Shown: positions 36 through 24,665 of the stretch, piece after piece
Layout: the number at the start of each line of letters is the position of its first letter
Numbering within the stretch: the stretch's first letter is position 1
Source of the DNA: Candidatus Hadarchaeota archaeon
Lineage (GTDB): Archaea > Hadarchaeota > Hadarchaeia > Hadarchaeales > Hadarchaeaceae
Direction: 5' to 3'
Assembly: GCA_040755315.1 (NCBI GenBank)
Contig: JBFMBF010000017.1
Span: 1 to 24,707 of the forward strand
Length of the DNA stretch: 24,707 nt
Program-made: the position numbers and the translations under genes
Notes under the pieces: model-generated
Databases searched by the model: none
The model's input: only the letters and a program-made list of their open reading frames with translations
Told to the model about the DNA's origin: nothing

Positions 36-3000
36 ATGGATCGATACGACGGCAGCTACCTCATTGATGTCTATGTGGGCGGAATGCTCACCTGGTCGAA
101 CGCCGGCAGGTGGTGGGAGCAGTGGGGCGTGGGACAGACCAGAGCAGCACCCCCGATACTGCTCATGATCCGCGACAGCGTAACCGGGGAATACGTGCAG
201 TACCACGACGCTCAGCGGGTCCGGGTCAGCCGCGTGGCTGTTGACACCTGGGTCTACGATTTTGAAGTTTTTGGGATTCTTCCGAGTGTCCCCGGCCATC
301 TCCTTTTAAGGGCGCAGAGAGCCACAGATGGAACCTTGGCTGTAACCCTGCAGGGTCACACAGGTCTTCATCCTTCGGACATCTTCCTCCAGAATCACGA
401 GACCGATGTCCTGCTCTGGTCGAACGCTGGCGGCACGGAGCAGAACCACGTCGGCGAAACGCAGACGGTTTCGGGTTACATCCTGCGCTGGTGCTCCGTC
501 CTGCCCTCGCTGACTTACTCTTACACCGTGCGGGGGGATCATCCCGACAACTACATGATTCCAACGGAAGCATTCTACTACGGCGGGGTCGCTGAATCCG
601 TCAGCTACACCGCATCCGCAAGCGTGACAATCGAAGTCAGGGAGGGTGACGCGGGGGTCCCTGGAGACGCCGGTAACACCATCGCTCAGGCGCGCGCCAT
701 AACCCCCGGCGACTACTGGGGCTACTTCGGCCCGGACGATCCATCCGACTTCTACTCCATCCAATCGCCGAGCGGGCTGCTGAGCGCAAGCATGGCGCCG
801 GGCAGCGACTACGACATCTACCTCTACGACGCGGGCCAGAACCTGCTCGCGAAGTCGGAGAACCGGGGGGACGCGGACGAGGAAATAACATATGCTGTCA
901 AAACGCCGGGGCAGTATTTCCTGGAGGTCCGGAAAGTCGAGGGGTTCGGACCGTATACCTTCAGCGTGGAAATAGAGCCGGAGCTGCCGGTGGTGGCGGT
1001 GGGGCCGGGGCTCAGCTCCCCGGCCGTCGCCTACGGGGACAACCGCTTCCTGGTAGTCTGGAACGACAGGGACAGCCGGATAGCTGGGAAAATATACGAC
1101 CTTGATGGGAATGTTGTAAAATCGAAGTTCACGGTCGCAGCGTCAACTATGCTTGGCGGTCCTTCCGTGGCATTCGGCGGCGGCAGCTTCTTCGTGGCCT
1201 GGCCTTACCAAGATCATTTGGGTGTGTGGCGTATCGGTGGCGCCGTCTTCGACCCGGACGGCAGCGTCGTGAAACCCGACTTCGAGATTGCCAGCGGCTC
1301 AAGCGCGAAGGTCGCATTCGGCGGCGGCAGGTTCATTGTGGCTTGGAAGAATGGGAATGAAATCCGCGCGGAAATGTTCAACGGCTGGGGAGATGGGTTG
1401 GGCACCTTTTCGATCTCCCATCCAGACCATTCGTATTTTGAACCCTCCGAGCCGTTTTCTCCACCGGCACCGCAGGAAGGCGCCGTAGAGGAGTGGAACT
1501 TCCAAAGCATTTCTTTCTCGGGCGGCAGGTTCCATCTGGGCTGGATTGGGCGAGCCTACAAATGGGGACGTTACAGCGAGGCCGAAGAACCAATCGTTTC
1601 AATAAGGTGGGACTGGAGCCGCACACATTTCGGCATAACCCCTGTCACGCCAGCTGGAGTCTTGGGTGAAACTAAAATTTTTGGACTTCGGGAAGAGTAC
1701 TTCGATGAAATTAAAATAGAATATCCCGGTTATCCTCCTTCAGAATCTTCATCATCTTGGTCGAAGGGCTCGTTCAACACAGCTTCTGCCCTGGCCGGAG
1801 GGGACAAAATAATGGTTGGACTCGGCGCAGAAGGTCTTGAAAATATCCTGATCCTGAACGCAGGCGAATATAGTTTGCTGGAGCAGCAGAAGTTCGGGTT
1901 CGGCCCGTCACGACTGATGGTTTTTGACGGAGTCCGGTTCATGGCGGTATTTCCGGGACATGAAAAAGCGGTGTTCACGGACGGGGAAGGCGTTTGGGAC
2001 GAAATTAATCTGAAGGTCTCAATTGCAAATCCCGCGGGGGCAGCGGAAGGCGGAAAATACTTCATTGTCGGGGAAAAAGATGGGAACATCCAAGCCATCG
2101 GCGCCCCAGTATTCCAATCTCTTATTTCTCCGGGCAACAGAAGTCTTGTTGTTTCCCCAGCCTTGGCGATGGACTGGTCGGACGCCAAAGACATCTACGG
2201 AGGAAGCTGCACCTACACTTTACTGCTTGGCAAAGACTCGGGCCTGTCGGTGCCATCTTTCGCCGCCCCAGACATCCTTGCTTCAAACTACTCTTCGATG
2301 CCGGAGCTCGATGACCTTACATATTATTGGCGCGTCGCTGCTCACGGAAAAACAAATATCCGGCTGGAAAACTTGTCCCAGGAAATCAGCGTTGGCCTGC
2401 GCCCGGAGTACAATTCTTGGTCCGAAGTCGGCCTATTTACCGTCGACACCCAAAGCCGGGCCTCCCTCATCGCCGCGGTCAACGGCGCCGCAGGACAATC
2501 ATTATGGATTCCAGCCATGCCCGCCGCCATCACAGCTGAAGCCATGGACAATGTGATAGATGTTGGCGGCATAGAGCTGTGGTACCGGTACAGCCACGAC
2601 GGGGCGAACTGGACCGGATGGGCGCCGGTTTTGGTTGATTATGTGAAAAGCGGAGGCCCCGAGCCGGTCAACGATTCAAGAGCTCATGAAGTTTCCCAGC
2701 TGCCGTGGGAGTGGCAGTACCCGGCCATCAGCAGTTACGAGAATGGAAGGGGCAGGCGTTATTACTACTTCAGGGACTTCTACGACTGGGGCCACTACGA
2801 ATTTTTCAGTGTTTTGAAAGATCGGTGGGGCAATAGGGAACTTCATCCATCCGAGGCGGACGTGCGCGTGTATTTCGAGAAGCCGACGTCGGTGAGGCTT
2901 GGCGACAGCGTGCGTGGTAAAGTTTCAAACTTCCCGAAGCGTTACGATTTCGACGTCCCCGAGAACACGCCGCAGTTGTACGTTAACTTGGACTGGTCCC

Positions 3001-6000
3001 GCGGCGACCTCGACCTGCATCTTTACGACCCGTCAGGCAGACACATCGGCACCACTGGCGAGAACCGTGACCATGAGATTGGCATCCTTGGCGCCGAATG
3101 CTCTGGGCCACTTTCCAAGCCCGAATGGATACTCGTGTCCAAGCCCAGGCCCGGGCGCTGGTCCGCGGAGGTTCGTCCTTATGGTCTAGAAGCGGAGGAG
3201 AATTTCACACTTGAGGTATTTACCGCAGCATCAAGGCCCGAATCGTCTCTCAGCTTGGTTGGGCCGTACTGGCACAACGCTTCGACGACACCGTTTGAAG
3301 TCAGAGCGGAGGCGTTTGAAACCACCATCCGGAAAGGTTGGGAGACAGTTGGTGCCCTGTGGGTCCGCCAGTTTGGCGCTTTGCATGAAGATGTTGCGTA
3401 CGGCATAGTTGTGGACAGCGCGGGAGATGTCTATGTGGCGGGAAGTTTAAGGGACGGCCTGTCCGGTCAGGTTCCTCAAGGAAGCACGGACGTTTTTGTT
3501 CGGAAATACAATGGTCAAGGAAGTGAGCTATGGACCCGCCAGTTTGGCACTTACAGTCAGGATGAGGCCTGGGGAGTTGACATTGGCAGGACGGATGTCA
3601 CAACCGATGGGAACGGCAGCATATACGTCGTTGGTTATACTTGGGGCGCTTTGTCTGGCCAGAGCCACTATGGGGGCAGCGATGGTTTTGTTAGAAAGTA
3701 TGACTCTCATGGCAACGAGCTCTGGACAAGGCAGTTCGGCACTTCAGATGTGGACGCCGCTTTCGGCGTTGCCGCGGGAAGTGATGGAAGCGTGTACGTG
3801 GCAGGCCACACTTATGGTAACCTGTCCAACCAAATCAATCAAGGATTCTCAGACGTGTTCCTGCGGAAGTACGATGCTCATGGCAGCGAGATCTGGACCC
3901 GCCAGTTCGGCACCTCCGGCTATGATTCAACATGGGATGTAACTGTGGATGGCGCCGGAAATGTTTACTCCGTTGGTTTCACAAGTGGCGCCTTGCCCGG
4001 CCAAGCTCACTTAGGAGGTTACGATGTGTTCATAAGGAAATACGATCCTCATGGCAACGAGCTATGGACGAAGCAGTTCGGCACAACTGGCCACGACGAG
4101 GCTTTTGGCGTGGCTTCAGAATCTTCGGGAAACATTTACCTGGTAGGTATTGCTGATGGGGCCTTGCCAGGCCAGGTCGGCTACGGAAGTAACGACGGGT
4201 TTGTGCGGAAATATGATGCGCACGGCAACGAGCTCTGGACGAGGCAGTTCGGAACTTCCTTAGGCGACTGGACTTACAAGGCAGGCGTCGACGCCGCCGG
4301 AAATGTATACATCGCCGGAGCCACAGAAGGGGCTCTTACAGGCTACAGCCAAAAGGGAAATTATGACGCATGTGTGTGGGCATACGATGCCAAAGGCAAT
4401 GAACTCTGGTCCTATCAGTTTGGCACTCCGGGAGTTGACGAGGCTTTCGACGTTGCCGCCGACGGTGCGGGGAATGTTTATGTGGTGGGCTGGGCTTCGG
4501 GTGCCCTGTTTGACCAGACACACCAAGGATATTCCGACGCCTTTGTGATGAAAATAGCGACGTCGGGGATCAAGCAAGTCGAGCTTTGGTACCGCCGCTC
4601 GTCTGACAATGTGGTCTGGTCTGACTGGAAGCCGTGTTCCACCGACAACTCCGAGCCGTTTTCATGGTCGTTCGGCGCTCCGGACGGAGACGGGTATTAT
4701 GAATTTTACAGCGCGGCAATGAACAGGGCTGGAAATCGCGAGTTGCCCCACGTAACAGCCGATGCTCAGGTCAGTGTTGATAAAAAACCTCCACAATCGT
4801 GGGTTCTTTCCCTCGATTCCGGCTGGCGGAACGCGTCGACGACCCCCTTTGAAGTGACAGCCAGTGCATCTGACGGGTTGAGCGGAACCGAGAAAGCCGC
4901 GCTCTGGTACAGGCATTCGGGCGACAACCTCACATGGGGGCGATGGAAACTCTTCGGGACGGACAATCAAGGACCCTGGTCTTGGTCTTTCACGGCTCCA
5001 GATGGCGGAGGATACTACGAATTTTGTTCCACAGCAGTTGATCTTGCGGGCAACGAGGAAGGGGCGCTGATCGATTCCCAACTGTTCAAGATTTCGACTT
5101 TTTCCGGGAGCGTGCGTGGCAGAGCCGTGGCAGAGTTTGAAAACGGAGAATCACATGCCCGCACGAGTTATGCGGACTGGATTGGAATATTTGGTGAGCA
5201 AATCTACGGATATTGGGATGACGGCTGGCCACACTGGATTCATATGGCCATTATGGACAAAGATGAATTTGTAGTGAAAGCCAAGCTGGAAGAATTTTTG
5301 GAAGAAATTGAAGTTGTTTCAGTACCGGTTCCACAACACGTTAGATACTGGCTTTCCCAACTTGACGACCCGGCCGAGTACGGGTTTGGTTCTCAGTGGG
5401 ATGTTGACACGACAACAATCTTCCAGGGATTCAAGGGGAGGATGTGGTTACCAGAACCGATAAAAACCGGAGAACTGGCAGTGCTTTCCGCCGGAGGATA
5501 CATTTATAGTGAAATTTTGCGCGAAGAGATATACGAAAATGTGCGGGCTGAGATTTTTGACCTACTGGGGGAGTTGGAAACTATTGTACGGCACCCCGCA
5601 AGAGCCGAGGCTCGCTTGGCTGTTGACATTACTCCTCCCGAATCGTCTGTTGGACCCATAACACCTTATTGGAGGGTCGCAGGCGCGGTGCCATTCAATG
5701 TTCGCGCCACGACATCCGATGCGCTGAGTGGAGCCGAAAACGTTGAACTCTGGTATCGCCACTCTCAGGACAACCTGATATGGGGCGACTGGAAACTGGT
5801 CGGTGAAACTCCTGCCGTGGAAATAAATCTGCTAAGTGAAAGCTTTGACGGGAAAACTTGGAGTTCATTGGCACTGCAGGGGTGGGATCCTCAGGGCGGA
5901 GCCAATCCCTCCGTGACGGACGGCGTGCTTTTTGTCCCACTAAACTCTTACCCGAAAAAACCCCTGACAGTGGATCCGCCGTTTACAGTTGAGGCCAAGA

Positions 6001-9000
6001 TAAAAAGCGACGGTTGGTCCCACCTCTACATCGCGGGAATAGACGAAATGCAGGTCACACCGCCGGCCGACAACCTCTGGCACACGGCCACCATCATCGC
6101 CACGGCTCCGGTCGACGGAAGGTTCAAAGTGTTGGCATACCTGGACAACGAACTCCAGGATGTGGCCGAAGACTTGGACGCTTCTTGGGCAAGGCTCGAG
6201 TATATAGAGCTGGAGGGTCCGGCCGCATCGGGGAATGCCTGGTTCGACAACATCGTAGTGTACAGGCGGGTTGAACCGAAGTGGTCGTTCAGCGCTCCGG
6301 AAGGGGACGGTTATTATGAGTTTTACTCCATAGCGATTGACCGGGCCGGCAACCGCGAGGAGCCTCCAGACGCGGCAGACGCGCAGGCTGGCGTCGACAC
6401 TACTCCTCCAGAGTCGTCGGCGAATCCGGTCGAGCCCTATTGGCACAACGCCTCGTCCATGCCCTTCGAGGTAACCTCCGCCGCGTCGGACGGCCTGAGC
6501 GGCGTCGGGAAAGTCGAGCTGTACTACAGATACTCGGCGGACAACTTGGACTGGAGCCACTGGAAACCCTACGGCGCCGATTCAGTACCATCGGACGGCT
6601 TTAGCTGGGGCTTCGGCGCCCCCGAAGGCGACGGATACTACGGGTTCATGACCATCGCCACGGACTCTGCAGGGAACGCCGAATCCAAGCCTCTGGCGAG
6701 CCATGAAAACAGTGTCTTCGGCCGCGTCTTGTACGACAACGGCGACCCGGTTGAAGGGGTCCAGGTCAGCTTTTCGTACTGGGACGAACAGACGGCTTCT
6801 TATGAAACAATCAAATACACCGATTCGAACGGCTACTACGAGATACCGATAACCTCGGCGAACCCGCACGGTTACAGCGAGTGGGGCTTCAACGTGATCA
6901 AGTGGATGCCGAGCGGCATGTGGGCCGGTATCGGTACTGGGTTCGAGAACGGCCCGCTACACGTCTTTGGGGAGTACGCCGGAACTTACCTGCCGGAAAG
7001 CAAAACTTGGGCTGTCGACGGCATGATGGGCTCGCGCGTTGACGTTGCGATTTCAGCGAAGCCGGTCACATTCTGGGGCCACAGCGAGTACAAGCGGTTT
7101 TACAACATGGCGGGCTCGCAAACTCTGACGTTTGACTACCCGTTCGGGAAGGCGGACGCGACGCACATGGGAGGGGGGAACGTATACATCGAGGGGGGCG
7201 ACCTGCGGACGAAGTCATTCGATGCGACGCTTTACGACGCGACCGAAGGCAAAGCGATTCTGACGGTAACTGTGGGCGGGCGCGGGGAATACTGGGATTC
7301 GCTTGTCATCGACAATAAAACCGTGTTGCAGAACCTTCTCGGCCACCAGCTGGAGTGGCGAATCAACGCGGCCGATGTCATAGACTACATTTACGCTGGC
7401 AAGTCCTTCTGGGGCGTTGTTCAGAATGTCCCGTCCTACGGCTGGACGCAATCAAGGCACCTTGTCGTGGCGGACTACTCTCCAAATCACGGCGTTGGGC
7501 GACAGGAATCCGAGGCCGGCGTGGATACTGCACCCCCGGAGATTGAGCACGACCCCCTTGACGAATGGCAGAGTTCCGACCCGTACGAGGTCAAGGCTAC
7601 CGTGGTGGATGAAACGTCCGGCCTCGCGCCCGGCTTTCCCTCGCTCCATTATCTTACATTGAACAACCCGACATTTTCAGACGGGTTCGACGGCAGCGCT
7701 CTGGACGCAACGAAGTGGGCCACCGGAAGCACGAAGGTGACCTGTTCTCAAATCGCGACTGCAAACGGGGCGCTTGAGTTGACGGCGAGGGCGGCCAGGT
7801 CCGGAACATACGGCGCGAACTACGTCGTCTCAAAATCACCGTTCGACTTCAACCAGGGGATGGCGTTTGAAATCCCAATGAGCGTCTCAACCTATGACGC
7901 CCCGGCCGACTTCAGGGGCGAGTTCTACCTGACGCCTACATTCACTACCACAACCAACCCGCACGACCAGCCGGACTGGTTAAGGCTCTCAGCGAGCGTC
8001 GACCGCGAAGGAGTCAGGTGGATGCTGCAGCGCAGACGCGGCGGGGGAGGGATTGGGACGCTCGGCGAGAACGAAACCTTCGAGGGGAACGAAAACGCAG
8101 AAGAGCCCCACATGTACACCTCGGGCCCGACGCGGAAGCTCAGCAGCGCCTGGAGGATTTTCATAGACAGCGAGAACGTCACCGTCTGGCTCGACAACGA
8201 GCTGGTGGAGCCGACCAGGCCACACGGGATGAATTTCACCAGCGCATACGCCTACCTGGCCCTGCGGACGAAAGTCGCCCCAGTCTACACCGTCAGGTTC
8301 GACCGTTTTGCCGCCGGAGCGCTGAACTGGACCCAGGCAAACATGCAGCCAACGGGACAGCCGGACGAGTACTCGGCTTCAATTCCCGACATGCCTGATG
8401 AAGCGGCGGTCTGGTACTACATCGGCGCGGCAGACAGGGCTGCAAACACCTCCACGAACCCAGCCGGAGCCCCAGCGAACCCGTACATGTTCATCGTGGA
8501 CAAGGCGCCTCCGGTATCGTTTGTAACCCCCATCACGCTATTCTGGCAGAAATCAACCTCGTTGGCAGTCTCGGCAACCGCGTCTGATGAGGGTAGCGGC
8601 GTTGAATCGGTCCAACTGTTTTACAGATACTCGCCCGACAACCGAATTTGGGGAGACTGGGTATCGCTCGGTGCCGACGGCAATAGTCCGTGGAAGTGGC
8701 AGTTCGGCTTCCAGGACGGCGAGGGGTTCTATGAGTTCTACAGCCTAGCCGTCGACCGCGCCGGCAACGTTGAAGATTTGCTGCCTGAAGCTGACGCTGG
8801 CTGCGGCATCGATTTGACCCCTCCAGAGTCATCTGTCAATCCCGTGACGCCTTACTGGCAGAACGCTTCGATGGTGCCGTTCGTCGTGAATGTCACCGCA
8901 TTTGATGCAACGAGCGGCGTGAAAAGCGTCGGCCTGTACTACCGATATTCAGCTGACAACGGAATCTGGGGCGAATGGGCGCTCCACGGTGTCGACGAAG

Positions 9001-11504
9001 CCGCCCCGTATTCCTGGCAGTTTTCAGCTCCAGACGGCGACGGTTACTATGAGTTTTACAGTGCCGCCACGGACGCTGCTGGAAATGCTGAAGCCGCGTC
9101 AACGGCTACCTCGGGCTGGCTGGCGGGATGGCAGCGCCGCAGGCCGGTGACGATCAGCAACGGCGCGGGGCAGCTGGACGGATACCAGGTGAGAGTCGAG
9201 GTGCCGCGGAGTTCCGACATGAGGCAGGGCTACGAAGACCTCAGGTTCACGATGGGTGACGGCGCAACCCTGCTGCCACACTGGGTCGAGAACCGCGGCA
9301 CGGCATCCGCAGATGTCTGGGTCCGGGTGCCATCGGTCCCAACGGGAGAGACCACAGTCTACATGTACTACGGCAACACGGCCGCCATGGACGCGAGCGA
9401 TGGGAACGCCACTTTCGAGTTCTTCGACGACTACTCAGGAACCTCGCTCGATACCGGAAAGTGGAACGTGAGGTACGGCTCGCCAACCGTGGCCAACTCT
9501 GTTTTGACTCTTGAGGGCAGCGACGGCAAGGACGCGATAAGGAGCAAGGCCTCGTGGGGAACCGGATACGCGTTCAGGTATAAGGACAGGCCGAGGAACG
9601 CGACCGAGTCCCAGGACGCATGGGCCAACGCCAACAGTTCGTGGGACTTCTCGGACGACTCCGAAGCCGTGCTGGCTTTCCCCGGCAACAACCTTATGTA
9701 CTTCAGGACCAGAACGGGCGGCAGCCCGACCACAAGCACCGGCGTCTGGACGGTTTGGGATCCCGACTGGGCCGTCTTTGAGATACAGAGGCCCGACTCC
9801 TCGGCAGCCAGGCTGTTCGGGAACGACACTTTGATAGTGCAGAACACGTCAAACATCCCAACCGTGCCGCTGTTCGTGGGTCACGAGGCAAACGTGAGTA
9901 CCCTTCTGGTGGACTGGTCCCTCGTCCGCAAGATAGCTCTAATTGAGCCGACCACGAGCGTTGGGGCAGAAGAGCAACAGGCGGGGCGGGCGGATGCCAT
10001 GTGCGGCGTGGACACCGTGCCGCCCGCGACCGGTCACGAGCTGTCTGGAGAAGAGGGTGACAACGGCTGGTGGCGCAGCAACGTTGGCATTGAGCTGGGC
10101 GCCGAGGACAACCTGAGCGGCGTGAGCAGGACGCTTTACCGAATCGACGGCGGGGCGTGGCAAACCTATGCTAACCCGTTCATCATCGGCGACGGCATTC
10201 ACATCGTTGACTACCGCTCTGCCGACATTGCTGGCAACTTGGAGGCAATCAGGCCGGTCGAGATAAAAGTTGACACGACCCCGCCAGTTTCATCGGTGAA
10301 TCAAATCGAACCATTCTGGCAGGACTCGGCGCCGTTCACAGTCTCGGTGATGGCGTCCGACGCCACAAGCGGAGTTGAGAGAGTCAAGCTGTTTTACAGA
10401 AGCTCGATAGACAACTCGAACTGGACGGCGTGGGAGTTGTTCGGCAGCGATGATTCGGCGCCGTACGAGTGGCAATTCACGGCGCCGGACGGCTACGCCT
10501 TGTATGAGTTCTACTCGGTTGCCGCAGATGTCGCCGGGAACGTTGAGAGCGCGCCGGATGTTGCAGATTCTTCATGCGGGTTGACAATCCCGGCCGAGGT
10601 AGACATCGACCCCGACACCCTGAACCTGAACAGCAACGGCAAGTGGGTCACCGCCTACATAGAGCTGCCGCAGGGTCACGATTTCGGGAACGTTCGCATA
10701 CTGGGCATAATGCTGAACGACGCGGTCCCGGCGGAGTCGAGCCCCACATACGGGTTCGTGAAGGACCCGCAACTGGTCGATCGAGACGGGGACGGGCTGC
10801 CGGAGCTGATGGTGAAGTTCAGCCGTTCGGCGGTGCAGGCGCTGGTGGACGTCGGCGATGTGAAGCTGACGGTGACCGGGAAGTGGCACGCGGTGCTGTT
10901 CGAGGGGAGCGACAACATCCGCGTGATTGATCCGGGCCAAGACCAGGGCAGCCAAGGAAACGGCCAAAGGTCGCCGACGACGCCTCCAGGACAGAGTGGG
11001 CAGCCTTCAGGTCAAGGGGGTGGCCAAGGGCAAAGCAGCCAGGGAGGGCAGCAGGTGGGCCAGGGACAACCCCAGACACCTTTAGGGCATGGCACCGGCG
11101 GCGGGAACCAGGGCAGTAGCCAGAGCCAGGGCAACGGGCGGGGGCAGTCGCAGTCCAACCCGGGGCACGGCGGCCAGCCACCAGGACAGAACTCCAACGG
11201 CCAGGGCGATGCTGGCCAGGGACAAGGGAACGCGCAGGGCGGCTCCAGCAATCAGGCAGTTGATAATCAAAGCCCGGTAGAAACGTCCCAAGCGCAGGAG
11301 AGTCAGGGCACCTGCAATCAGGACAATCAGGCTCAGGTCGGCCAAGACAACCAATCGCAAGTAAACCAAGTTAATGAAAATCAATGGGTGCCGAGCACGC
11401 CCCAAGGACAGGGAAACCAGAGCGGACAGCAGGCAAACAAGGATAACCAATCATCCCAAGGCCAAGGCAATCAAAACGGGCAGGGAAAGGGCAAGACCAA
11501 ATAA
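36..11504 (+). CDS. Giant (>=3822 aa) multidomain, probably secreted or cell-surface protein; N-terminus probably lies outside the window
   Basis: Single uninterrupted ORF. The same frame is open from nt 3 (VRKEGDFYSAT before the Met at 36), and no signal peptide is visible. Contains PPC-like, propeller, Ig-like, lectin-like and DUF2341-like segments, many N-x-S/T sequons and a Q/G-rich C-terminus. Confidence 0.9.
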   Translation: MDRYDGSYLIDVYVGGMLTWSNAGRWWEQWGVGQTRAAPPILLMIRDSVTGEYVQYHDAQRVRVSRVAVDTWVYDFEVFGILPSVPGHLLLRAQRATDGTLAVTLQGHTGLHPSDIFLQNHETDVLLWSNAGGTEQNHVGETQTVSGYILRWCSVLPSLTYSYTVRGDHPDNYMIPTEAFYYGGVAESVSYTASASVTIEVREGDAGVPGDAGNTIAQARAITPGDYWGYFGPDDPSDFYSIQSPSGLLSASMAPGSDYDIYLYDAGQNLLAKSENRGDADEEITYAVKTPGQYFLEVRKVEGFGPYTFSVEIEPELPVVAVGPGLSSPAVAYGDNRFLVVWNDRDSRIAGKIYDLDGNVVKSKFTVAASTMLGGPSVAFGGGSFFVAWPYQDHLGVWRIGGAVFDPDGSVVKPDFEIASGSSAKVAFGGGRFIVAWKNGNEIRAEMFNGWGDGLGTFSISHPDHSYFEPSEPFSPPAPQEGAVEEWNFQSISFSGGRFHLGWIGRAYKWGRYSEAEEPIVSIRWDWSRTHFGITPVTPAGVLGETKIFGLREEYFDEIKIEYPGYPPSESSSSWSKGSFNTASALAGGDKIMVGLGAEGLENILILNAGEYSLLEQQKFGFGPSRLMVFDGVRFMAVFPGHEKAVFTDGEGVWDEINLKVSIANPAGAAEGGKYFIVGEKDGNIQAIGAPVFQSLISPGNRSLVVSPALAMDWSDAKDIYGGSCTYTLLLGKDSGLSVPSFAAPDILASNYSSMPELDDLTYYWRVAAHGKTNIRLENLSQEISVGLRPEYNSWSEVGLFTVDTQSRASLIAAVNGAAGQSLWIPAMPAAITAEAMDNVIDVGGIELWYRYSHDGANWTGWAPVLVDYVKSGGPEPVNDSRAHEVSQLPWEWQYPAISSYENGRGRRYYYFRDFYDWGHYEFFSVLKDRWGNRELHPSEADVRVYFEKPTSVRLGDSVRGKVSNFPKRYDFDVPENTPQLYVNLDWSRGDLDLHLYDPSGRHIGTTGENRDHEIGILGAECSGPLSKPEWILVSKPRPGRWSAEVRPYGLEAEENFTLEVFTAASRPESSLSLVGPYWHNASTTPFEVRAEAFETTIRKGWETVGALWVRQFGALHEDVAYGIVVDSAGDVYVAGSLRDGLSGQVPQGSTDVFVRKYNGQGSELWTRQFGTYSQDEAWGVDIGRTDVTTDGNGSIYVVGYTWGALSGQSHYGGSDGFVRKYDSHGNELWTRQFGTSDVDAAFGVAAGSDGSVYVAGHTYGNLSNQINQGFSDVFLRKYDAHGSEIWTRQFGTSGYDSTWDVTVDGAGNVYSVGFTSGALPGQAHLGGYDVFIRKYDPHGNELWTKQFGTTGHDEAFGVASESSGNIYLVGIADGALPGQVGYGSNDGFVRKYDAHGNELWTRQFGTSLGDWTYKAGVDAAGNVYIAGATEGALTGYSQKGNYDACVWAYDAKGNELWSYQFGTPGVDEAFDVAADGAGNVYVVGWASGALFDQTHQGYSDAFVMKIATSGIKQVELWYRRSSDNVVWSDWKPCSTDNSEPFSWSFGAPDGDGYYEFYSAAMNRAGNRELPHVTADAQVSVDKKPPQSWVLSLDSGWRNASTTPFEVTASASDGLSGTEKAALWYRHSGDNLTWGRWKLFGTDNQGPWSWSFTAPDGGGYYEFCSTAVDLAGNEEGALIDSQLFKISTFSGSVRGRAVAEFENGESHARTSYADWIGIFGEQIYGYWDDGWPHWIHMAIMDKDEFVVKAKLEEFLEEIEVVSVPVPQHVRYWLSQLDDPAEYGFGSQWDVDTTTIFQGFKGRMWLPEPIKTGELAVLSAGGYIYSEILREEIYENVRAEIFDLLGELETIVRHPARAEARLAVDITPPESSVGPITPYWRVAGAVPFNVRATTSDALSGAENVELWYRHSQDNLIWGDWKLVGETPAVEINLLSESFDGKTWSSLALQGWDPQGGANPSVTDGVLFVPLNSYPKKPLTVDPPFTVEAKIKSDGWSHLYIAGIDEMQVTPPADNLWHTATIIATAPVDGRFKVLAYLDNELQDVAEDLDASWARLEYIELEGPAASGNAWFDNIVVYRRVEPKWSFSAPEGDGYYEFYSIAIDRAGNREEPPDAADAQAGVDTTPPESSANPVEPYWHNASSMPFEVTSAASDGLSGVGKVELYYRYSADNLDWSHWKPYGADSVPSDGFSWGFGAPEGDGYYGFMTIATDSAGNAESKPLASHENSVFGRVLYDNGDPVEGVQVSFSYWDEQTASYETIKYTDSNGYYEIPITSANPHGYSEWGFNVIKWMPSGMWAGIGTGFENGPLHVFGEYAGTYLPESKTWAVDGMMGSRVDVAISAKPVTFWGHSEYKRFYNMAGSQTLTFDYPFGKADATHMGGGNVYIEGGDLRTKSFDATLYDATEGKAILTVTVGGRGEYWDSLVIDNKTVLQNLLGHQLEWRINAADVIDYIYAGKSFWGVVQNVPSYGWTQSRHLVVADYSPNHGVGRQESEAGVDTAPPEIEHDPLDEWQSSDPYEVKATVVDETSGLAPGFPSLHYLTLNNPTFSDGFDGSALDATKWATGSTKVTCSQIATANGALELTARAARSGTYGANYVVSKSPFDFNQGMAFEIPMSVSTYDAPADFRGEFYLTPTFTTTTNPHDQPDWLRLSASVDREGVRWMLQRRRGGGGIGTLGENETFEGNENAEEPHMYTSGPTRKLSSAWRIFIDSENVTVWLDNELVEPTRPHGMNFTSAYAYLALRTKVAPVYTVRFDRFAAGALNWTQANMQPTGQPDEYSASIPDMPDEAAVWYYIGAADRAANTSTNPAGAPANPYMFIVDKAPPVSFVTPITLFWQKSTSLAVSATASDEGSGVESVQLFYRYSPDNRIWGDWVSLGADGNSPWKWQFGFQDGEGFYEFYSLAVDRAGNVEDLLPEADAGCGIDLTPPESSVNPVTPYWQNASMVPFVVNVTAFDATSGVKSVGLYYRYSADNGIWGEWALHGVDEAAPYSWQFSAPDGDGYYEFYSAATDAAGNAEAASTATSGWLAGWQRRRPVTISNGAGQLDGYQVRVEVPRSSDMRQGYEDLRFTMGDGATLLPHWVENRGTASADVWVRVPSVPTGETTVYMYYGNTAAMDASDGNATFEFFDDYSGTSLDTGKWNVRYGSPTVANSVLTLEGSDGKDAIRSKASWGTGYAFRYKDRPRNATESQDAWANANSSWDFSDDSEAVLAFPGNNLMYFRTRTGGSPTTSTGVWTVWDPDWAVFEIQRPDSSAARLFGNDTLIVQNTSNIPTVPLFVGHEANVSTLLVDWSLVRKIALIEPTTSVGAEEQQAGRADAMCGVDTVPPATGHELSGEEGDNGWWRSNVGIELGAEDNLSGVSRTLYRIDGGAWQTYANPFIIGDGIHIVDYRSADIAGNLEAIRPVEIKVDTTPPVSSVNQIEPFWQDSAPFTVSVMASDATSGVERVKLFYRSSIDNSNWTAWELFGSDDSAPYEWQFTAPDGYALYEFYSVAADVAGNVESAPDVADSSCGLTIPAEVDIDPDTLNLNSNGKWVTAYIELPQGHDFGNVRILGIMLNDAVPAESSPTYGFVKDPQLVDRDGDGLPELMVKFSRSAVQALVDVGDVKLTVTGKWHAVLFEGSDNIRVIDPGQDQGSQGNGQRSPTTPPGQSGQPSGQGGGQGQSSQGGQQVGQGQPQTPLGHGTGGGNQGSSQSQGNGRGQSQSNPGHGGQPPGQNSNGQGDAGQGQGNAQGGSSNQAVDNQSPVETSQAQESQGTCNQDNQAQVGQDNQSQVNQVNENQWVPSTPQGQGNQSGQQANKDNQSSQGQGNQNGQGKGKTK
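663..975 (+). other. PPC-like (pre-peptidase C-terminal) domain 1 within the giant ORF
   Basis: Motifs DAGNT..A..I, D.SDFY.I, DYDIYLYD, DEEITY, PGQYFLEV, GPYTFSV. Confidence 0.75.
1000..2100 (+). repeat. Degenerate beta-propeller-like repeats (PxVAxGxxxFxVxW)
   Basis: PAVAYGDNRFLVVW, PSVAFGGGSFFVAW, AKVAFGGGRFIVAW, ISFSGGRFHLGW; boundaries approximate. Confidence 0.6.
2890..3225 (+). other. PPC-like domain 2 within the giant ORF
   Basis: YDFDVPE..QLYVNLDW..GDLDLHLYDPSG...PEWILVSKPRPGRWSAEV..FTLEV. Confidence 0.7.
3360..4560 (+). repeat. Seven tandem SBBP-type beta-propeller repeats (57 aa, 171 nt)
   Basis: W-x-x-Q-F-G motifs start at 3360, 3531, 3723, 3894, 4065, 4236 and 4407 (spacing 171 nt, once 192 nt). 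Each is followed by D.A.GV..D..GNVYV.G and D.FVRKYD..G.EL or close variants. Confidence 0.9.
9113..9975 (+). other. DUF2341-like domain plus lectin-like extension within the giant ORF
   Basis: GWLAGWQRRRPVTI, YQVRV, DLRFT, LLPHWVE, VWVRVPSVP, VYMYYGN, ATFEFFDD, VDWSLVRK. Confidence 0.8.
10930..11501 (+). repeat. Gln/Gly/Asn/Ser low-complexity C-terminal tail (~190 aa)
   Basis: Repeated GQG, QGN, PPGQ and QDNQ units; ends GQGKGKTK; no hydrophobic transmembrane segment. Confidence 0.9.
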
Positions 11505-11561
11505 TCCAAGGTTTTTGCATGATTTGGCGCGATTCAACAAACCGTTTTCTTTGTGATTGCC

Positions 11562-13061
11562 ATGCTTGAGATAATCCAGCGCGACGCGATGGCTAGAATA
11601 GGGCGACTGAACACCGCCCACGGCAACATCACAACTCCGACCCTGATGCCGGTCATCAACCCCATCGATATTTTTCTCACGCCCAAAGAGATGAAAAAGG
11701 AATTCGGCGCCGAGCTGATGATGACGAACGCCTACTTCACCATGCGCCATTTCGGCGAGGAAGGGAAAAAGCAAGGCATTCACGGAATTCTTGACTACGA
11801 CGGCCCGGTGTTTACCGACAGTGGCGGGTACCAGATTTTGCGCTACGGGGATGTCGACGCCACACCTGAAGAAATCGTGCGGTACGAGGACGCCATCGCC
11901 CCTGACATCGCGACGATCCTCGACATCCCGACTGGAGTGGTCGAGAACAGGGGGCAGGCGGAGGAGACCGTGCGCGTCACGCTCGAACGCGCGAAGCAGG
12001 GCGTCCAGCTCAGGTCGAACAAGAAGGTTATGTGGTGCGGCCCGATCCAGGGCGGACTTTTCCCCGACTTGGTTGCCACTTCAGCGCGGGAGATGGGAAA
12101 ACTCGATTTCCATGTCCATGCAATCGGGAGCCCGGTGGAGCTGATGGAGGGCTACCGCTACGCCGAGCTTGTGGAGCTGGTGATGGCGGCGAAGCAGAAT
12201 CTTCCGCTCGATAGGCCGGTCCACCTCTTCGGGGCTGGCCACCCGATGATGTTCTCCCTCGCTGTTGCAATGGGCTGCGACCTCTTCGACTCGGCGGCTT
12301 ACGTGCTCTACGCGCGGGACGGGAGGTATCTGACCTCCGAAGGAACGCTCAGGCTTGATGAACTACTCTGGTTCCCCTGCGAATGCCCAGTCTGCTCGGA
12401 AACAACTCCGGAAGAGATGCGAAAGCTTCCAGAGAAAGAGAGAGTCAAACTTCTCGCCAAGCACAACCTCCACGTCAGCTTCGGCGAGCTCCGCCGCATC
12501 AGGCAGGCCATCGCGGAGGGGCGGCTGTGGGGAATCGTCCAAACAAGGTGCAGGTCCCACCCCCGCCTTCTCGACGGGCTGAGGAGGCTGATCCAATACT
12601 CTGAATTCATCGAGTGCTTTGACCAGGTCACGAAGCCATCGGCGTTCTACTACTCCGGGGAAGAGTCTGCCGAAAGGCCGGAAGTCACCCGCCACCGCCG
12701 GAGGCTGCAGGAAAGGTACGAGCCTCCTCCGCTGCCGACGCTGGCGCTGCTGCCGTCGTTTGAAAATTCAATGCCGGACCTGGAAGAGCCCGAACAAACT
12801 CACTTGGTCAGGCTCATCCCACCGTTCGGCGTTGTCCCTGAAGAGCTCGAGGAAGTCTACCCTCTCTGGCAGTTTGACGTGCCGAGGGAGCTTGACAAGG
12901 AGCAGATGCGGTCGGTCACAGAGTCGCTGGAGCGATACCTGCGCAAGCACGGCGGGAAATACAAGCGCGTGGTACTCTACAACGACGAAAAGAGATGGAG
13001 CAACCTGCTGGTCGAAGCATGCGAACCCGTCAGGGAAAAGCTCAGTGTAATCAGCCTCTGA
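11562..13061 (+). CDS. tgtA: tRNA-guanine(15) transglycosylase (archaeosine TGT), short form without a PUA domain
   Basis: RD..ARIGRL, TPTLMPVINP, TDSGGYQ, LDIPT, HLFGAGHP, GCDLFDSAAY, zinc site CECPVC...HNL. ATG at 11562 is preferred over GTG at 11553 from the family N-terminus. Confidence 0.95.
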   Translation: MLEIIQRDAMARIGRLNTAHGNITTPTLMPVINPIDIFLTPKEMKKEFGAELMMTNAYFTMRHFGEEGKKQGIHGILDYDGPVFTDSGGYQILRYGDVDATPEEIVRYEDAIAPDIATILDIPTGVVENRGQAEETVRVTLERAKQGVQLRSNKKVMWCGPIQGGLFPDLVATSAREMGKLDFHVHAIGSPVELMEGYRYAELVELVMAAKQNLPLDRPVHLFGAGHPMMFSLAVAMGCDLFDSAAYVLYARDGRYLTSEGTLRLDELLWFPCECPVCSETTPEEMRKLPEKERVKLLAKHNLHVSFGELRRIRQAIAEGRLWGIVQTRCRSHPRLLDGLRRLIQYSEFIECFDQVTKPSAFYYSGEESAERPEVTRHRRRLQERYEPPPLPTLALLPSFENSMPDLEEPEQTHLVRLIPPFGVVPEELEEVYPLWQFDVPRELDKEQMRSVTESLERYLRKHGGKYKRVVLYNDEKRWSNLLVEACEPVREKLSVISL

Positions 13062-13109
13062 ACATGCGCTTGAATCCAACAATTTACGACCTGCCCGCGT
13101 TTTTCCCCC

Positions 13110-13116
13110 TTAAATA
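13110..13116 (+). promoter_or_regulatory. Putative TATA box (TTAAATA) for a plus-strand transcript of the intergenic/tRNA-like region
   Basis: Matches archaeal TATA consensus downstream of the tgtA stop and a T-tract; no purine-rich BRE. Confidence 0.35.
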
Positions 13117-13160
13117 CCCCGTCCGCTCAAAGCTTCGGCGGGAAGATGACAAACACTGAA

Positions 13161-13232
13161 CCAATTAAAATAAAAAAATCCCGCGGGGCAACCCACGGGA
13201 CAACCCGCAGCCCTGCTGAATTGACATCTGTC
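13161..13232 (-). ncRNA. Putative antisense small RNA unit 1, complementary to the 5' half of the tRNA-like RNA
   Basis: Minus strand reads AGCAGGGCUGCGGGUUG-UCCCGUGGG(UUGC)CCCGCGGGA-UUUUUUUAUUUU, with upstream AAAAATTATTTA at 13253-13242. 13180-13217 aligns to 13266-13300 with 29/35 identities. Confidence 0.5.
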
Positions 13233-13262
13233 ACGCTCGCCTAAATAATTTTTGGGTGAGGT

Positions 13263-13348
13263 GGGCCCGTGGGGTAATCTGGATAGCCCGCAGCCCTGCT
13301 AACCAGCGGGTACGAGGCTAAGTCCGGGTTCAAATCCCGGCGGGCCCG
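13263..13348 (+). tRNA. tRNA-like RNA with Arg-like body and aberrant anticodon arm; identity undetermined (possible non-canonical intron or pseudo-tRNA)
   Basis: Acceptor GGGCCCG/CGGGCCC plus G73; U8-G9; D arm GGGT-AATCTGGATA-GCCC; T arm CCGGG-TTCAAAT-CCCGG. Anticodon stem CAGCC/GGCTA encloses 20 nt instead of 7; variable loop is 3 nt. Confidence 0.75.
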
Positions 13349-13350
13349 CA

Positions 13351-13412
13351 CCATTAAAACAAAAACGGGCGGTCAAAAGACAGCCGCAACCCCTGCTAGT
13401 TCGCATTTGTTT
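13351..13412 (-). ncRNA. Putative antisense small RNA unit 2, paralog of unit 1 (could alternatively be the hisF 3' UTR/terminator)
   Basis: Minus strand reads AGCAGGGGUUGC-GGCUGUC(UUUU)GACCGCC-CG-UUUUUGUUUU, with upstream TTTTATC at 13423-13417. Shares flanks CCA(A)TTAAAA.AAAAA and CAT.TGT with unit 1. Confidence 0.4.
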
Positions 13413-13440
13413 GACAGATAAAACTTGTTTAGAGGTCTTG

Positions 13441-14265
13441 TCAGATTCTAACTGCGATCCCTCGTTTGGCCAGGAAATTCTTGACTTCCTTCACTTTGTA
13501 TTCCCCATAGTGGAAGATGCTCGCGGCCAAGGCAGCGCTCGCCTGGGTCCTCTTTAAAACTTCGTACATGTGCTCCGGCCCGCCCGCCCCGCCAGATGCT
13601 ATCACAGGTATCCCCACCATCTTGCTCACCGCGCCCGTGAGCTGGATGTCATAACCCTCCACTGTGCCGTCCCTGTCCATGCTCGTTAGCAGTATCTCGC
13701 CCGCGCCGCGCCTCTCCACCTCGAGCGCCCACTTGATGGCGTCCAGCCCCGTGAACTTCCTCCCGCCGTAAATCGAGCACTCAAACCAGCAGGGGCCTTC
13801 CGGGGTCTCAACAACCACTTTTCCCTTGGCCTCCCCCTTTGAGCGGATGTACCTCCTCTTGGCGTCTATCGCGACGACGCAGGCCTGGCTGCCAAAGTAC
13901 TTCGAGATCTCGCCCACGAGGCGCGGGTTCTTCACAGCGGCTGTGTTCACGGCGACCTTGTCCGCCCCCGCCTTGAAAGCCTTCCCCGCTGCCTCGACGG
14001 AGCTGATTCCCCCGCCAACTGTCAGCGGCACGAACACCTCCTCTGAAGTTTTTTTGATCACGTCGGTCATGGTCGCCCTCCTCTCATGGCTGGCCGTTAT
14101 GTCAAGGAAGACTATCTCGTCGGCCCCGTCCTGGTAGTACTTCCTCGCGAGCTGCCATGGGACGCCGGCGTACCTGATCTGCTTGAACTCTATCCCCTTG
14201 ACGACGCGGCCCCGGGAGACGCCGAAGTCGCAGTCGAGGCACGGGATTATCCTCCGGCTGAGCAT
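13441..14265 (-). CDS. hisF: Imidazole glycerol phosphate synthase cyclase subunit HisF
   Basis: [61 protein letters not shown]. Confidence 0.97.
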
Positions 14266-14860: not shown

Positions 14861-14969
14861 CGGAACCCTGACGACTGTGGTTCTGGGCTTAATTTGGTTT
14901 TGGGAGCGGCGCTTGGCTTAACCTTATCAAAAAGTGTGGGTTTATTTAATCGGGAGTAAGGTAAGGTGC

Positions 14970-16559
14970 ATGCAAAAGACGGCAAAAATAAGAAAGCTGG
15001 CCCATAACGGCGTCCTGGTCCCGGCCTACGGGCCGCAGGGTTTTGCCATAGGCTACGATGGCAGAAAAATCAAACTGACGCCGGATCAGGAAGAGATGGC
15101 AGTTTCCTGGGCCCGGAAACTAGGGACGGACTATGTGAAAGACCCGGTCTTCGCGAGGAACTTTGCCAGGGATTTCTCCAAAGCTCTCGGGCTGGAAAAG
15201 GAAGCTAGGATGGACGACTTTGACTTTTCAAGAATAACTCAATGGCTGGAAAAGGAAAAAACAAGGAAAGAAAAAATGCCGCGGGAGGAAAAAAGGGCGC
15301 TGGCTGAAGCCAGGGAAAAAATCAGGGAAACCAACAGGGAAAAATACGGCTATGCAGTCCTGAACGGCGAGAAAGTTGAAATTGCCAACTACATGGTGGA
15401 GCCACCGTCGATATTCATGGGGAGAGGCAAGCATCCTCTGCGCGGGAGATGGAAGCCAAGTGTTGAATACGAAGACATCACCCTGAACCTTTCTGAAGAT
15501 GCTCCAACCCCAAAGCTTCCAGCTGGCAGAAAGTGGAGTGGAAGGGTGTTTGACCCCACGGCCCTCTGGGTGGCGAGGTGGAGGGACAAGCTGGCAGACA
15601 AGATGAAGTACGTCTGGATATCGGAGACTGCCAGGCCGAGGCAGGAGCGGGAGATGGAGAAGTTCAACACCGCGCTGAAGCTTCAGGACCGTATAGAAGA
15701 TGTGCGCAGATACATTTTACAAAACCTGAACTCGAAAGATATGCTCAGGCGCAAGGTGGCAACTGTTGCTTACCTGATAGACGCCCTCAAGCTCAGAGTC
15801 GGTGACGAGAAGGAAAAAGACGAAGCCGATACCGTAGGGGCCACCACCCTGCGAGGCGCGCATGTCAAGATAAACTCGGGTGGAAAAGTGAACTTTGATT
15901 TCTTGGGGAAGGACTCGGTGAGGTGGACGAAGACGGTGGAGCTGCCGCCGCAGGTTGTTCATAACTTGAAATCCCTCATCAAGGGGCCCCGTGACATGAT
16001 ATTCAATGGCGTCCGCTCAAACCTTGTAAACTCTTTTCTGAACGAGGCGATGCCTGGTCTTACCGCGAAGGTCTTCAGAACTTACCATGCCACGAAAATA
16101 GTGAGCGACTATCTCTCCCAAAACAATGTTTCTCCTTCAGACCCAGAAATCAAGAAAAAATTTGTCGCGACATCGGCAAACCTCCGGGCTGCCATTGCCT
16201 GCAACCACAAGCGCAAGCTCCCAAAGAGTTGGGAGTCGTCTATGGAGAAAAAAACAATGCGCCTCAAGTCGCTGGAAGAAAAGCTCAGAGAACTCAGGGA
16301 CATGCCCAAAACAATGGCACGGCTCAAAAGGATGAAGAGGCTGCGGGCGGAAATCAAGTCCGCGAAATTGAAGCTTGAAATGGCCAGCATGACCAAGAAC
16401 TACAACCTCGTCACATCACTCAAGAGTTACATAGACCCGAGAGTCTACGCCATCTGGGCCAAGAAAAACTCGTACGACTGGAAGCAGGTATACCCGAAGA
16501 GCCTGCAAAGGAAGCTGTTGTGGGTCGAAGAAGACTTCGGCAAGTGCCAATCAGATTAA
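14970..16559 (+). CDS. top1B: Eukaryote-like DNA topoisomerase IB
   Basis: L.HNGV, VEPP.IFMGRGKHPLRG, LRVGDEK, FDFLGKDS, LTAKVFRTYHA, CNHKR, TSLKSYIDPR (catalytic Tyr codon 16428-16430). ATG at 14970 is preceded by AAGGTG and by TTTATTTAA at 14941. Confidence 0.95.
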   Translation: MQKTAKIRKLAHNGVLVPAYGPQGFAIGYDGRKIKLTPDQEEMAVSWARKLGTDYVKDPVFARNFARDFSKALGLEKEARMDDFDFSRITQWLEKEKTRKEKMPREEKRALAEAREKIRETNREKYGYAVLNGEKVEIANYMVEPPSIFMGRGKHPLRGRWKPSVEYEDITLNLSEDAPTPKLPAGRKWSGRVFDPTALWVARWRDKLADKMKYVWISETARPRQEREMEKFNTALKLQDRIEDVRRYILQNLNSKDMLRRKVATVAYLIDALKLRVGDEKEKDEADTVGATTLRGAHVKINSGGKVNFDFLGKDSVRWTKTVELPPQVVHNLKSLIKGPRDMIFNGVRSNLVNSFLNEAMPGLTAKVFRTYHATKIVSDYLSQNNVSPSDPEIKKKFVATSANLRAAIACNHKRKLPKSWESSMEKKTMRLKSLEEKLRELRDMPKTMARLKRMKRLRAEIKSAKLKLEMASMTKNYNLVTSLKSYIDPRVYAIWAKKNSYDWKQVYPKSLQRKLLWVEEDFGKCQSD

Positions 16560-24580: not shown

Positions 24581-24665
24581 TGGGCCCGCGGGGATTCGAA
24601 CCCCGGTAACTACCGATCCCAGACTTCTTGTGAGGGTAGTGTCTTAACCACTGGACCACGGGCCC
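24581..24665 (-). tRNA. tRNA-Val(CAC) with a 13-nt intron at position 37/38 (24616-24628)
   Basis: GGGCCCG TG GTCC AGTGGTTA AGAC A CTACC CT-CAC-A[AGAAGTCTGGGAT]C GGTAG TTAC CGGGG TTCGAAT CCCCG CGGGCCC A. BHB has central helix CUCA/UGGG and bulges CAA and AUC; A73. Confidence 0.93.

Follow-up and report, generated by a model that had tools for sequence, protein, structure and literature searches.

A recurrent cassette in Hadarchaeota joins an abnormal tRNA-like RNA to a predicted cognate antisense RNA: a putative RNA-only toxin-antitoxin-like module

Introduction

Two validated types of RNA-only toxin-antitoxin (TA) system are recorded in TADB 3.0, and neither has a tRNA as its toxin (PMC10767807). 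In the type VIII pair SdsR-RyeA of E. coli, two RNAs are made from opposite strands by convergent promoters with read-through into the downstream gene, and the antisense RNA constitutes the antitoxin (PMC6610125, PMC10767807). The cassette described here would resemble it in all these respects. However, the toxin SdsR belongs to the sRNAs, and RyeA overlaps it along its full length (PMC6610125, PMC10767807), while the cassette would employ a tRNA as its toxin and draws its antisense RNA from a separate partial duplicate; moreover, it belongs to a diversified multi-copy archaeal family whose toxicity is putative. CreTA is likewise an RNA-only addiction module of archaea that bears on tRNA-dependent translation (PMC8501985, PMC10767807). 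Yet CreT works as a mini-mRNA by which rare tRNAs are sequestered, and CreA mimics a crRNA and acts via Cascade on the promoter (PMC8501985). The present toxin candidate has a tRNA fold and no mini-ORF, Rfam returned no CRISPR-repeat match, and the pairing would be directly between RNA and tRNA, so the cassette was not assigned to CreTA.

Unusual tRNAs provide a second set of precedents. Allo-tRNAs and the tRNAs of irregular polycistrons are, like those of the cassette, extra and non-canonical; they lie near TA genes, have been suggested to be missense or nonsense suppressors, and two variants killed E. coli (PMC5389517). These bacterial RNAs adopt 8/4 or 9/3 folds, unlike the cassette tRNAs with their 7/5 fold, archaeal intron and expanded loop (PMC5389517, PMC7609411), and the word "antisense" is absent from the main text of PMC5389517. 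The +1 frameshift-suppressor tRNAs gain an 8-nt anticodon loop by the insertion of one base, which recalls the cassette tRNAs, but they are mostly laboratory mutants, the few natural cases from mitochondria and phages being rare exceptions (PMC5009743). The consulted parts of PMC5009743 describe no conserved expanded-loop family with a dedicated antisense RNA.

Partial direct copies near a full tRNA gene are also known from att sites, where the fragments flank elements of 9-23 kb at canonical tRNAs (PMC9897764). In the cassette, by contrast, a promoter spacer of ~45 nt separates the copy from a non-canonical tRNA with which it covaries; given this spacer and an integrase-family gene that sits on another contig, the locus was not classed as an att-site fragment. 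In the phage antisense RNAs C4 (P1/P7) and CI (P4), a tRNA-shaped RNA and short matching sequences share one small locus, and the complementary targets of the tRNA-like RNA are found within the transcript to which it belongs. The cassette differs in that its copy repeats the tRNA sequence directly, and in that the transcript of its antisense promoter has no conserved gene to control. In the literature searched, where subscription journals are poorly covered, no account of such an antisense-tRNA arrangement was found.

Organization of the locus

The window is the whole stretch of DNA analysed, 24,707 nucleotides of a Candidatus Hadarchaeota archaeon (contig JBFMBF010000017.1, assembly GCA_040755315.1); it is contig C17 of the genome termed G000 below, and L numbers denote fetched loci. 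The cassette lies between two genes outside it, tgtA for the archaeosine tRNA-guanine transglycosylase (11553-13061, plus strand; TIGR00432, 574 bits) and the convergent hisF (13441-14265, minus strand; TIGR00735). A candidate promoter, P1 (13100-13143, plus strand), comprises a TATA-like box (13110-13117), an imperfect dyad (13123-13141) and a predicted start at ~13137, and would drive a leader and a supernumerary tRNA-like RNA (13263-13353, plus strand). The gene of the latter, at 13263-13348, matches RF00005 with 43.2 bits. The RNA has an Arg-type body (A20, G73), an A15-U48 pair, a predicted mature anticodon loop of 8 nt, a CCA displaced by 2 nt (13351-13353) and a predicted 12-nt intron (13303-13314) whose bulge-helix-bulge lies one register off. 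A20 is a determinant for the arginyl-tRNA synthetase.

Upstream of this RNA is a partial direct copy of its positions 4-36 (13180-13217, plus strand), first noted in a preliminary description of the sequence. Realignment with 13266-13300 exactly reproduces the 29/35 identities and the one 3-nt insertion reported there. The six differences are indeed five T>C changes, at tRNA positions 13270, 13275, 13278, 13280 and 13284, and a G>A at 13286, and all 12 C and 5 A positions of the 35-nt alignment are unchanged. The copy has a local alignment score of 31, reached in 0 of 5000 shuffles of the 152-nt upstream region, the best of which scored 25. Directly beyond the two ends of the alignment the differences are of the pairing-breaking kind (A13301 versus G, G13265 versus T).

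On the minus strand, the hairpin (13201-13178; z -2.4) and U-run that had been described are present, the latter being the oligo-U terminator at 13167-13179, an A-tract on the plus strand. The AT-rich box reported upstream could be placed at 13242-13253. It falls within P2 (13242-13258, minus strand), a predicted antisense promoter with a conserved motif made of a purine-rich BRE-like element and a T-rich TATA-like box, which is overlapped by a sense-leader hairpin of the GCU subfamily (13236-13260, plus strand). P2 would produce an antisense RNA of ~48 nt (13170-13217, minus strand) predicted to pair with the anticodon loop through its 5' end, which is followed by the hairpin and the U-run. 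Beyond the tRNA-like RNA, a third, weaker copy (13379-13397), overlooked earlier, belongs to a second, degenerate antisense-type unit (13356-13427, minus strand) with an A-tract (13356-13366) and an AT-rich box (~13419-13424). Its predicted binding is -2.0 to the local tRNA-like RNA and -4.1 to that of L065, and the unit is either orphan or decayed.

The window also encodes a surface protein of 3822 aa (36-11504), in which SBBP beta-propeller repeats occur together with DUF2341 and Ig-like domains, and a Type IB (eukaryote-like) DNA topoisomerase (14934-16559), here in an archaeon. An intron-bearing tRNA-Val(CAC) at 24581-24665 is identical to G000:C25:1-85; both are contig ends, and the identity is probably an assembly overlap.

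A patchy family of cassettes

BLAST with this region of the window revealed paralogous loci, both within G000 and in its two genus-mates. A pattern made of the spacer and the tRNA ends gave 12 matches in GTDB and 11 in metagenomes, and all 12 from GTDB are in Hadarchaeota records (older names included, one spelled Hodarchaeaceae). With a covariance model built from 17 sequences, one of them from G000, G000:C11 and C35 scored ~100 bits and the other G000 matches at most 68. Out of 131 tRNA-shaped bodies, 24 cassettes were kept, 21 with the copy upstream and three with it downstream. Six rows with at least 13/16 matches were dropped (three neighbouring canonical tRNAs, an AT-rich chance match, a near-duplicate and the duplication at G000:C8), and L069, L160, L167 and G000:C28, missed by the parser, stand outside all counts. 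Intact cassettes occur in about 11 of the 66 phylum genomes, which are incomplete, and all in one family; the distribution is patchy. Absence from relatives, as of a decayed tandem duplication, would have counted against the preliminary description; the locus is instead one member of a family, with 24 cassettes analysed, that is seen only in Hadarchaeota. The covariation proposed there could not be read from orthologous tgtA-hisF intergenic regions: the 3' flank of tgtA holds no cassette in any of the 29 other loci fetched (35 other genomes have a tgtA match). Searches of viral contigs gave 0, 0 and 5 pattern matches, the five without a T-arm, and a plasmid search returned no cassette copy.

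T-arm bodies of G000 served as a control: among 47 of them, 41 lack any flanking repeat of at least 9 nt, and the six that have one comprise five non-canonical tRNA-like genes and one body that is not a tRNA. Two promoter-independent searches yielded 19 matches, namely two canonical tRNAs, 11 intact members and six broken ones. Every one of the 11 intact members carries the antisense unit, and all six lacking the unit also miss the 5' acceptor strand. Since deletion between the direct repeats can remove both parts mechanically, this co-loss is weak evidence; G000:C24, for instance, equals G002:C17 minus a clean deletion between 20-nt repeats.

L067 contains an array of P1-led units (L067:350-2400), made up of two tandem cassettes, a DUF4258/zinc-ribbon gene pair, two antisense units without a partner (orphans) and an RHH/HTH gene, and no known recombinase was seen in it. 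Genome-wide, the scan for orphan units was noisy (11 matches versus 6 and 6 in controls), and the count was therefore limited to those that match known sequences of the family. At G000:C8, a 55-nt 5' duplication that is exact and has a promoter-like spacer is plausibly the birth stage of a cassette. That locus (G000:C8:3377-3700, L044) has the duplication upstream of a Leu/Tyr-like tRNA-shaped RNA and then a 234-aa PIN-like protein, whose gene follows a different cassette in G015 and P1 directly in G019. One cassette type lies, in L047, L057 and L069, directly upstream of a 461-aa gene that we take to be the CCA-adding enzyme, judging from its N-terminus. Across the family the genes downstream of cassettes vary or are absent, which led us to reject a type III TA system with a fixed protein partner.

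P1, sought as a regular expression, precedes 18 of the 24 cassettes. The exact pattern matched many coding regions and was replaced by a matrix built from those sites and applied to G000 only, where it finds 25 sites, with none scoring between 14 and 24 bits. In that genome P1 also precedes HTH, RHH, Cas2-like, LAGLIDADG, SNase and OB-fold genes and hence marks a putative regulon. The ~47-bp motif (examples at window 13100-13143, C22:10982, C1:71782, C3:80005 and C18:21130) combines a TATA box with an imperfect dyad over the start site, and is seen ahead of genes that are pilin-like by eye too.

Geometry of the antisense unit

Upstream-type cassettes follow the order P1, A-tract, optional hairpin, copy, spacer and tRNA-like gene, and the three downstream copies show the same layout. 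The minus strand of the spacer bears the conserved purine-rich element and T-rich box. This P2 box lies 23-24 nt past position 36, or 25-29 nt in five cassettes, mostly those whose copies extend past 36; measured to the end of complementarity, the distance ranges from 21 to 28 nt and is 25 nt in 12 of 21 cassettes. At offset 24 or 25, 20 of the 21 have a pyrimidine-purine initiator, compared with 1 of 21 at offset 26. From the positions of the initiator and of the end of complementarity, it follows that the predicted antisense RNA begins where pairing begins, at 13217 in the window rather than at ~13221 as first proposed.

Complementarity stops at or beside the predicted 5' splice site, and for the 24 predicted antisense RNAs the copy is preceded by an A-tract or another run rich in A. 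The 35-nt duplex with a hairpin, put forward earlier for the window, stands there and mainly in the GCU subfamily; it does not extend to many other cassettes, where a copy of 15-25 nt pairs and the U's follow directly, with no hairpin. Most copies are without the acceptor strand, and a split or trans-spliced tRNA was rejected for this reason. Neither leaders nor copies have a conserved ORF start or frame; both partners of the cassette are accordingly non-coding, and a leader peptide was rejected. In the downstream-copy cassettes (G000:C28:10564-10780, C38:3480-3700, L037:1380 and L046), inspection by eye shows long leader-trailer stems that lengthen the acceptor stem and a hairpin inserted ahead of CCA; that of G000:C28 is a divergent Tyr-like member.

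Abnormal features of the tRNA-like RNAs

The family cloverleaf is paired in 94.7% of cells, 14 of its 22 pairs show two-sided changes, and the Levitt 15-48 pair is A-U in 12 members and G-C in four; the tRNA-like fold is under selection. The acceptor and T-stem follow the 7/5 arrangement and are paired in 98.3% and 96.5% of cells. These RNAs are extra, as G000 has canonical genes for Ser(GCU), Val(GAC) and Asp(GUC), among them a long-arm tRNA-Ser(GCU) at G000:C19:12355. Many of its canonical tRNAs have D-arm or multiple introns (C3:10423, C5:3011, C12:8266, C19:16034, C22:1524), and ARAGORN with relaxed intron settings gave only noise.

Several departures from the norm recur. CCA is never at 74-76 in the family (0/24, versus 67/100 non-family bodies) and is displaced by 1-4 nt in 13/24 versus 1/100, A15 is present in 18/24 versus 3/100, and C33 in 14/24. 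The splice helix is complete (4/4) in the canonical register in 3 of 22 inserts as against 25 of 32 controls, while a helix of 3/4 or 4/4 pairs is regained once the register is moved by one step. The mature anticodon loop is predicted to have 8 nt in 14 of 24 members, 13 by the best splice register, for which the scoring is a custom heuristic of this analysis, and one, intronless, read directly. The only such loop among the 32 controls belongs to an intronless long-arm tRNA that was parsed wrongly. The intronless member, L037:1380, already carries the same 8-nt loop that prediction gives G000:C35 after splicing. Members of the GAC/GGC group can be aligned to tRNA-Arg(GCG) if a single base is taken as inserted. 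Suf mutants, which are +1 frameshift suppressors, likewise have expanded anticodon loops. A splicing endonuclease is encoded in G000, on contig C30.

In the window the shifted helix joins 13297-13300 with 13309-13312 by 4/4 pairs, and the outer stem has one pair. With A15, a displaced CCA, a short variable arm and either a GCU anticodon or an 8-nt loop, this RNA departs from a canonical archaeal tRNA, which has a 7-nt anticodon loop with U33, a G15, CCA (where encoded) at 74-76 and an anticodon that agrees with its body. Depending on stacking, its modelled anticodon loop could read GCU or CUA, and both would mismatch the Arg-type body. It is also one base short near 43-45 relative to G000:C13 and may be decaying.

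Each antisense RNA follows its own partner

When binding energies including unfolding were compared, the cognate tRNA-like RNA ranked first of 24 in 19 of the 24 cassettes (21 by duplex energy alone). The median predicted binding was -18.0 kcal/mol to the own partner, +0.8 to non-partners and +1.7 for the sense strand. The partner fell below rank 1 in five cassettes, and two bind weakly (-7.6 and -3.4). Two of the features that mark type VIII are found here: both partners are predicted to be non-coding, and by computation the antitoxin candidate is complementary to its partner and specific for it (rank 1 in 19/24). For the window, the antisense RNA is predicted to bind its own partner with -21.0 kcal/mol and the sense strand with -0.7, and its best binding among 35 other G000 tRNA-like bodies is -10.6. 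Anticodon stems differ widely among cassettes, with copies that change to match their own partners, and this would make every cassette self-specific.

Across the 21 upstream-type cassettes, transitions compatible with G-U pairing occupy 19 of 141 T/G sites and pairing-breaking ones 7 of 258 C/A sites; at positions 27-36 the figures are 4/71 and 0/139. The claim that every substitution preserves G-U pairing therefore holds for the window alignment and fails for the family, where seven transitions break it; the bias is real, not absolute. Fisher tests gave p from 6.5e-5 to 0.014, values that overstate the case because the cassettes share ancestry; as distinct site-type events there are 11 compatible, five breaking and six transversions. 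Moreover, the identical asymmetry would arise if the stems of the tRNA itself drifted by C>U and A>G beside a static copy. In view of this kinship and of wobble drift, the promoter geometry and the tracking of partners are weighted above the G-U bias. DGR-type adenine mutagenesis was rejected, as G>A is as common as T>C.

Overall, the idea that a small RNA from the minus strand enters the D-arm and the anticodon arm is borne out at the level of prediction by an RNA of ~48 nt, the fixed promoter spacing, the covariation with its own partner, the -21.0 kcal/mol and the G-U bias.

A proposed mechanism

A dedicated antisense RNA directed against an abnormal tRNA is the core common to the readings considered, and we hold it to be very probable. 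That the whole is an RNA-only toxin-antitoxin-like cassette, in which a miscoding or stalling tRNA, mostly Arg-derived, is silenced by its cognate antisense RNA, is the reading that we favour with modest confidence. P1 would give rise to the extra tRNA, derived from tRNA-Arg in most members, and splicing would leave an abnormal anticodon loop, either of 8 nt or of 7 nt with C33 and an anticodon mismatched to the body. Once charged, such a tRNA might cause +1 frameshifting, nonsense read-through or Ser-to-Arg misreading, or stall ribosomes, and growth would slow. P2 would meanwhile supply a short, unstable antisense RNA from the duplicated piece of the tRNA 5' exon, which would start at the anticodon, zip into the anticodon stem and D-arm and thereby prevent the tRNA from folding, being spliced or decoding. 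P1 may in addition be damped by the convergent transcription that starts at P2.

A more specific version is tentative. The cassettes might encode selfish "poison tRNAs" that are spliced, charged with arginine and, through 8-nt loops, shift frame or read stops, each licensed by its own antisense RNA, their anticodon stems diversifying to escape resident antidotes. Miscoding leaves unexplained the member at G000:C38, with its normal-looking GUC loop and G73. Frameshift suppressors are often tolerated. Enlarged anticodon loops need not give quadruplet reading (PMC5009743). C33 and the displaced CCA could equally leave the RNAs inactive in translation.

Alternative explanations

A first alternative is a decoy that does not decode and instead ties up the splicing endonuclease, the ligase, a synthetase or the CCA enzyme, or baits an anticodon nuclease, with the antisense RNA unfolding it. 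C33 in 14/24, a CCA never at 74-76, the loss of G15, the rarity of a 4/4 helix in the canonical register (3/22 inserts versus 25/32 controls) and the normal loop of C38 would all suit such an RNA, as would the PIN-like protein (DUF3368/PIN, a lead only) after some cassettes. However, the downstream genes differ or are missing, and the restored helix of the shifted register together with the predicted spliced loop of the intronless member suggests that the spliced decoding end matters. We regard the decoy as unlikely.

Ranking next, and doubtful, is an inducible recoding or stress tRNA that benefits the host through frameshifting, read-through or dormancy, placed under the P1 regulon with the antisense RNA as its off switch. 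The diverse G000 genes behind P1 do look like a regulon, and some cassettes sit between P1 and a conserved downstream gene. Yet intact cassettes were found in only ~11 of 66 genomes and are often collapsed, and conflict is the better match for diverging self-specific pairs and for orphan antisense units. G000 uses TAG and TGA as ordinary stops: its long ORFs end with TGA in 325, TAA in 154 and TAG in 120 cases, and no PylRS above the cut-off was found in that genome; with all three stops in use, pyrrolysine recoding was rejected.

It is improbable that the cassette is a non-functional remnant of duplication or integration, a displaced 5' tRNA fragment beside a pseudo-tRNA, even though integrating elements commonly leave partial duplications of tRNAs (PMC9897764) and the 55-nt duplication at G000:C8 is exact. 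The copy ends at the anticodon loop. Integrases are known to cross over at this loop. Against a remnant, the spacer is of 23-29 nt with a conserved promoter-like motif rather than a 9-23 kb element, the spacing, initiator and U-run are conserved, downstream copies keep the same layout, C>T or A>G changes occur in 0 of 139 sites at positions 27-36, and the cloverleaf covaries. No integrase lies near the cassettes, the sole PF00589 match in G000 being on C40.

Least probable is that the antisense RNA guides the modification, editing or processing of the tRNA-like RNA, or that the sense strand acts in cis as a refolding switch. In favour, complementarity ends at or beside the predicted 5' splice site, and one fold of the sense leader shows alternative pairs. 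On the other hand, the splice helix lies within the duplex, which has no room for a target pocket, Rfam gives no C/D, H/ACA or other match, and a sense-strand switch predicts the opposite bias, with C>T and A>G tolerated, and has a sense copy that binds with -0.7 here and a median of +1.7. The absence of C/D and H/ACA hallmarks noted before thus extends to all 24 predicted antisense RNAs, none of which shows them by eye. Nothing points to a modification or editing guide, and of the three roles first suggested, refolding switch, guide and antidote, the last fits best.

Significance

The cassettes are real and lineage-restricted, and if the tRNA-like RNAs are toxic, they would constitute a variant of RNA-RNA toxin-antitoxin logic. 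The "poison tRNA" version, if true, would establish a TA class with a tRNA as toxin and an instance in which a tRNA has an antisense RNA dedicated to its control. A conserved family of expanded-loop tRNAs controlled by antisense RNAs would mean that decoding itself is usable in genetic conflict, and its quadruplet or suppressor tRNAs, natural and already equipped with a switch, would be useful for code expansion. The cassette units, of ~220 nt, are directly testable in a model archaeon. Finally, for the Hadarchaeota, such a family would account for the "undetermined" extra tRNA calls in these genomes.
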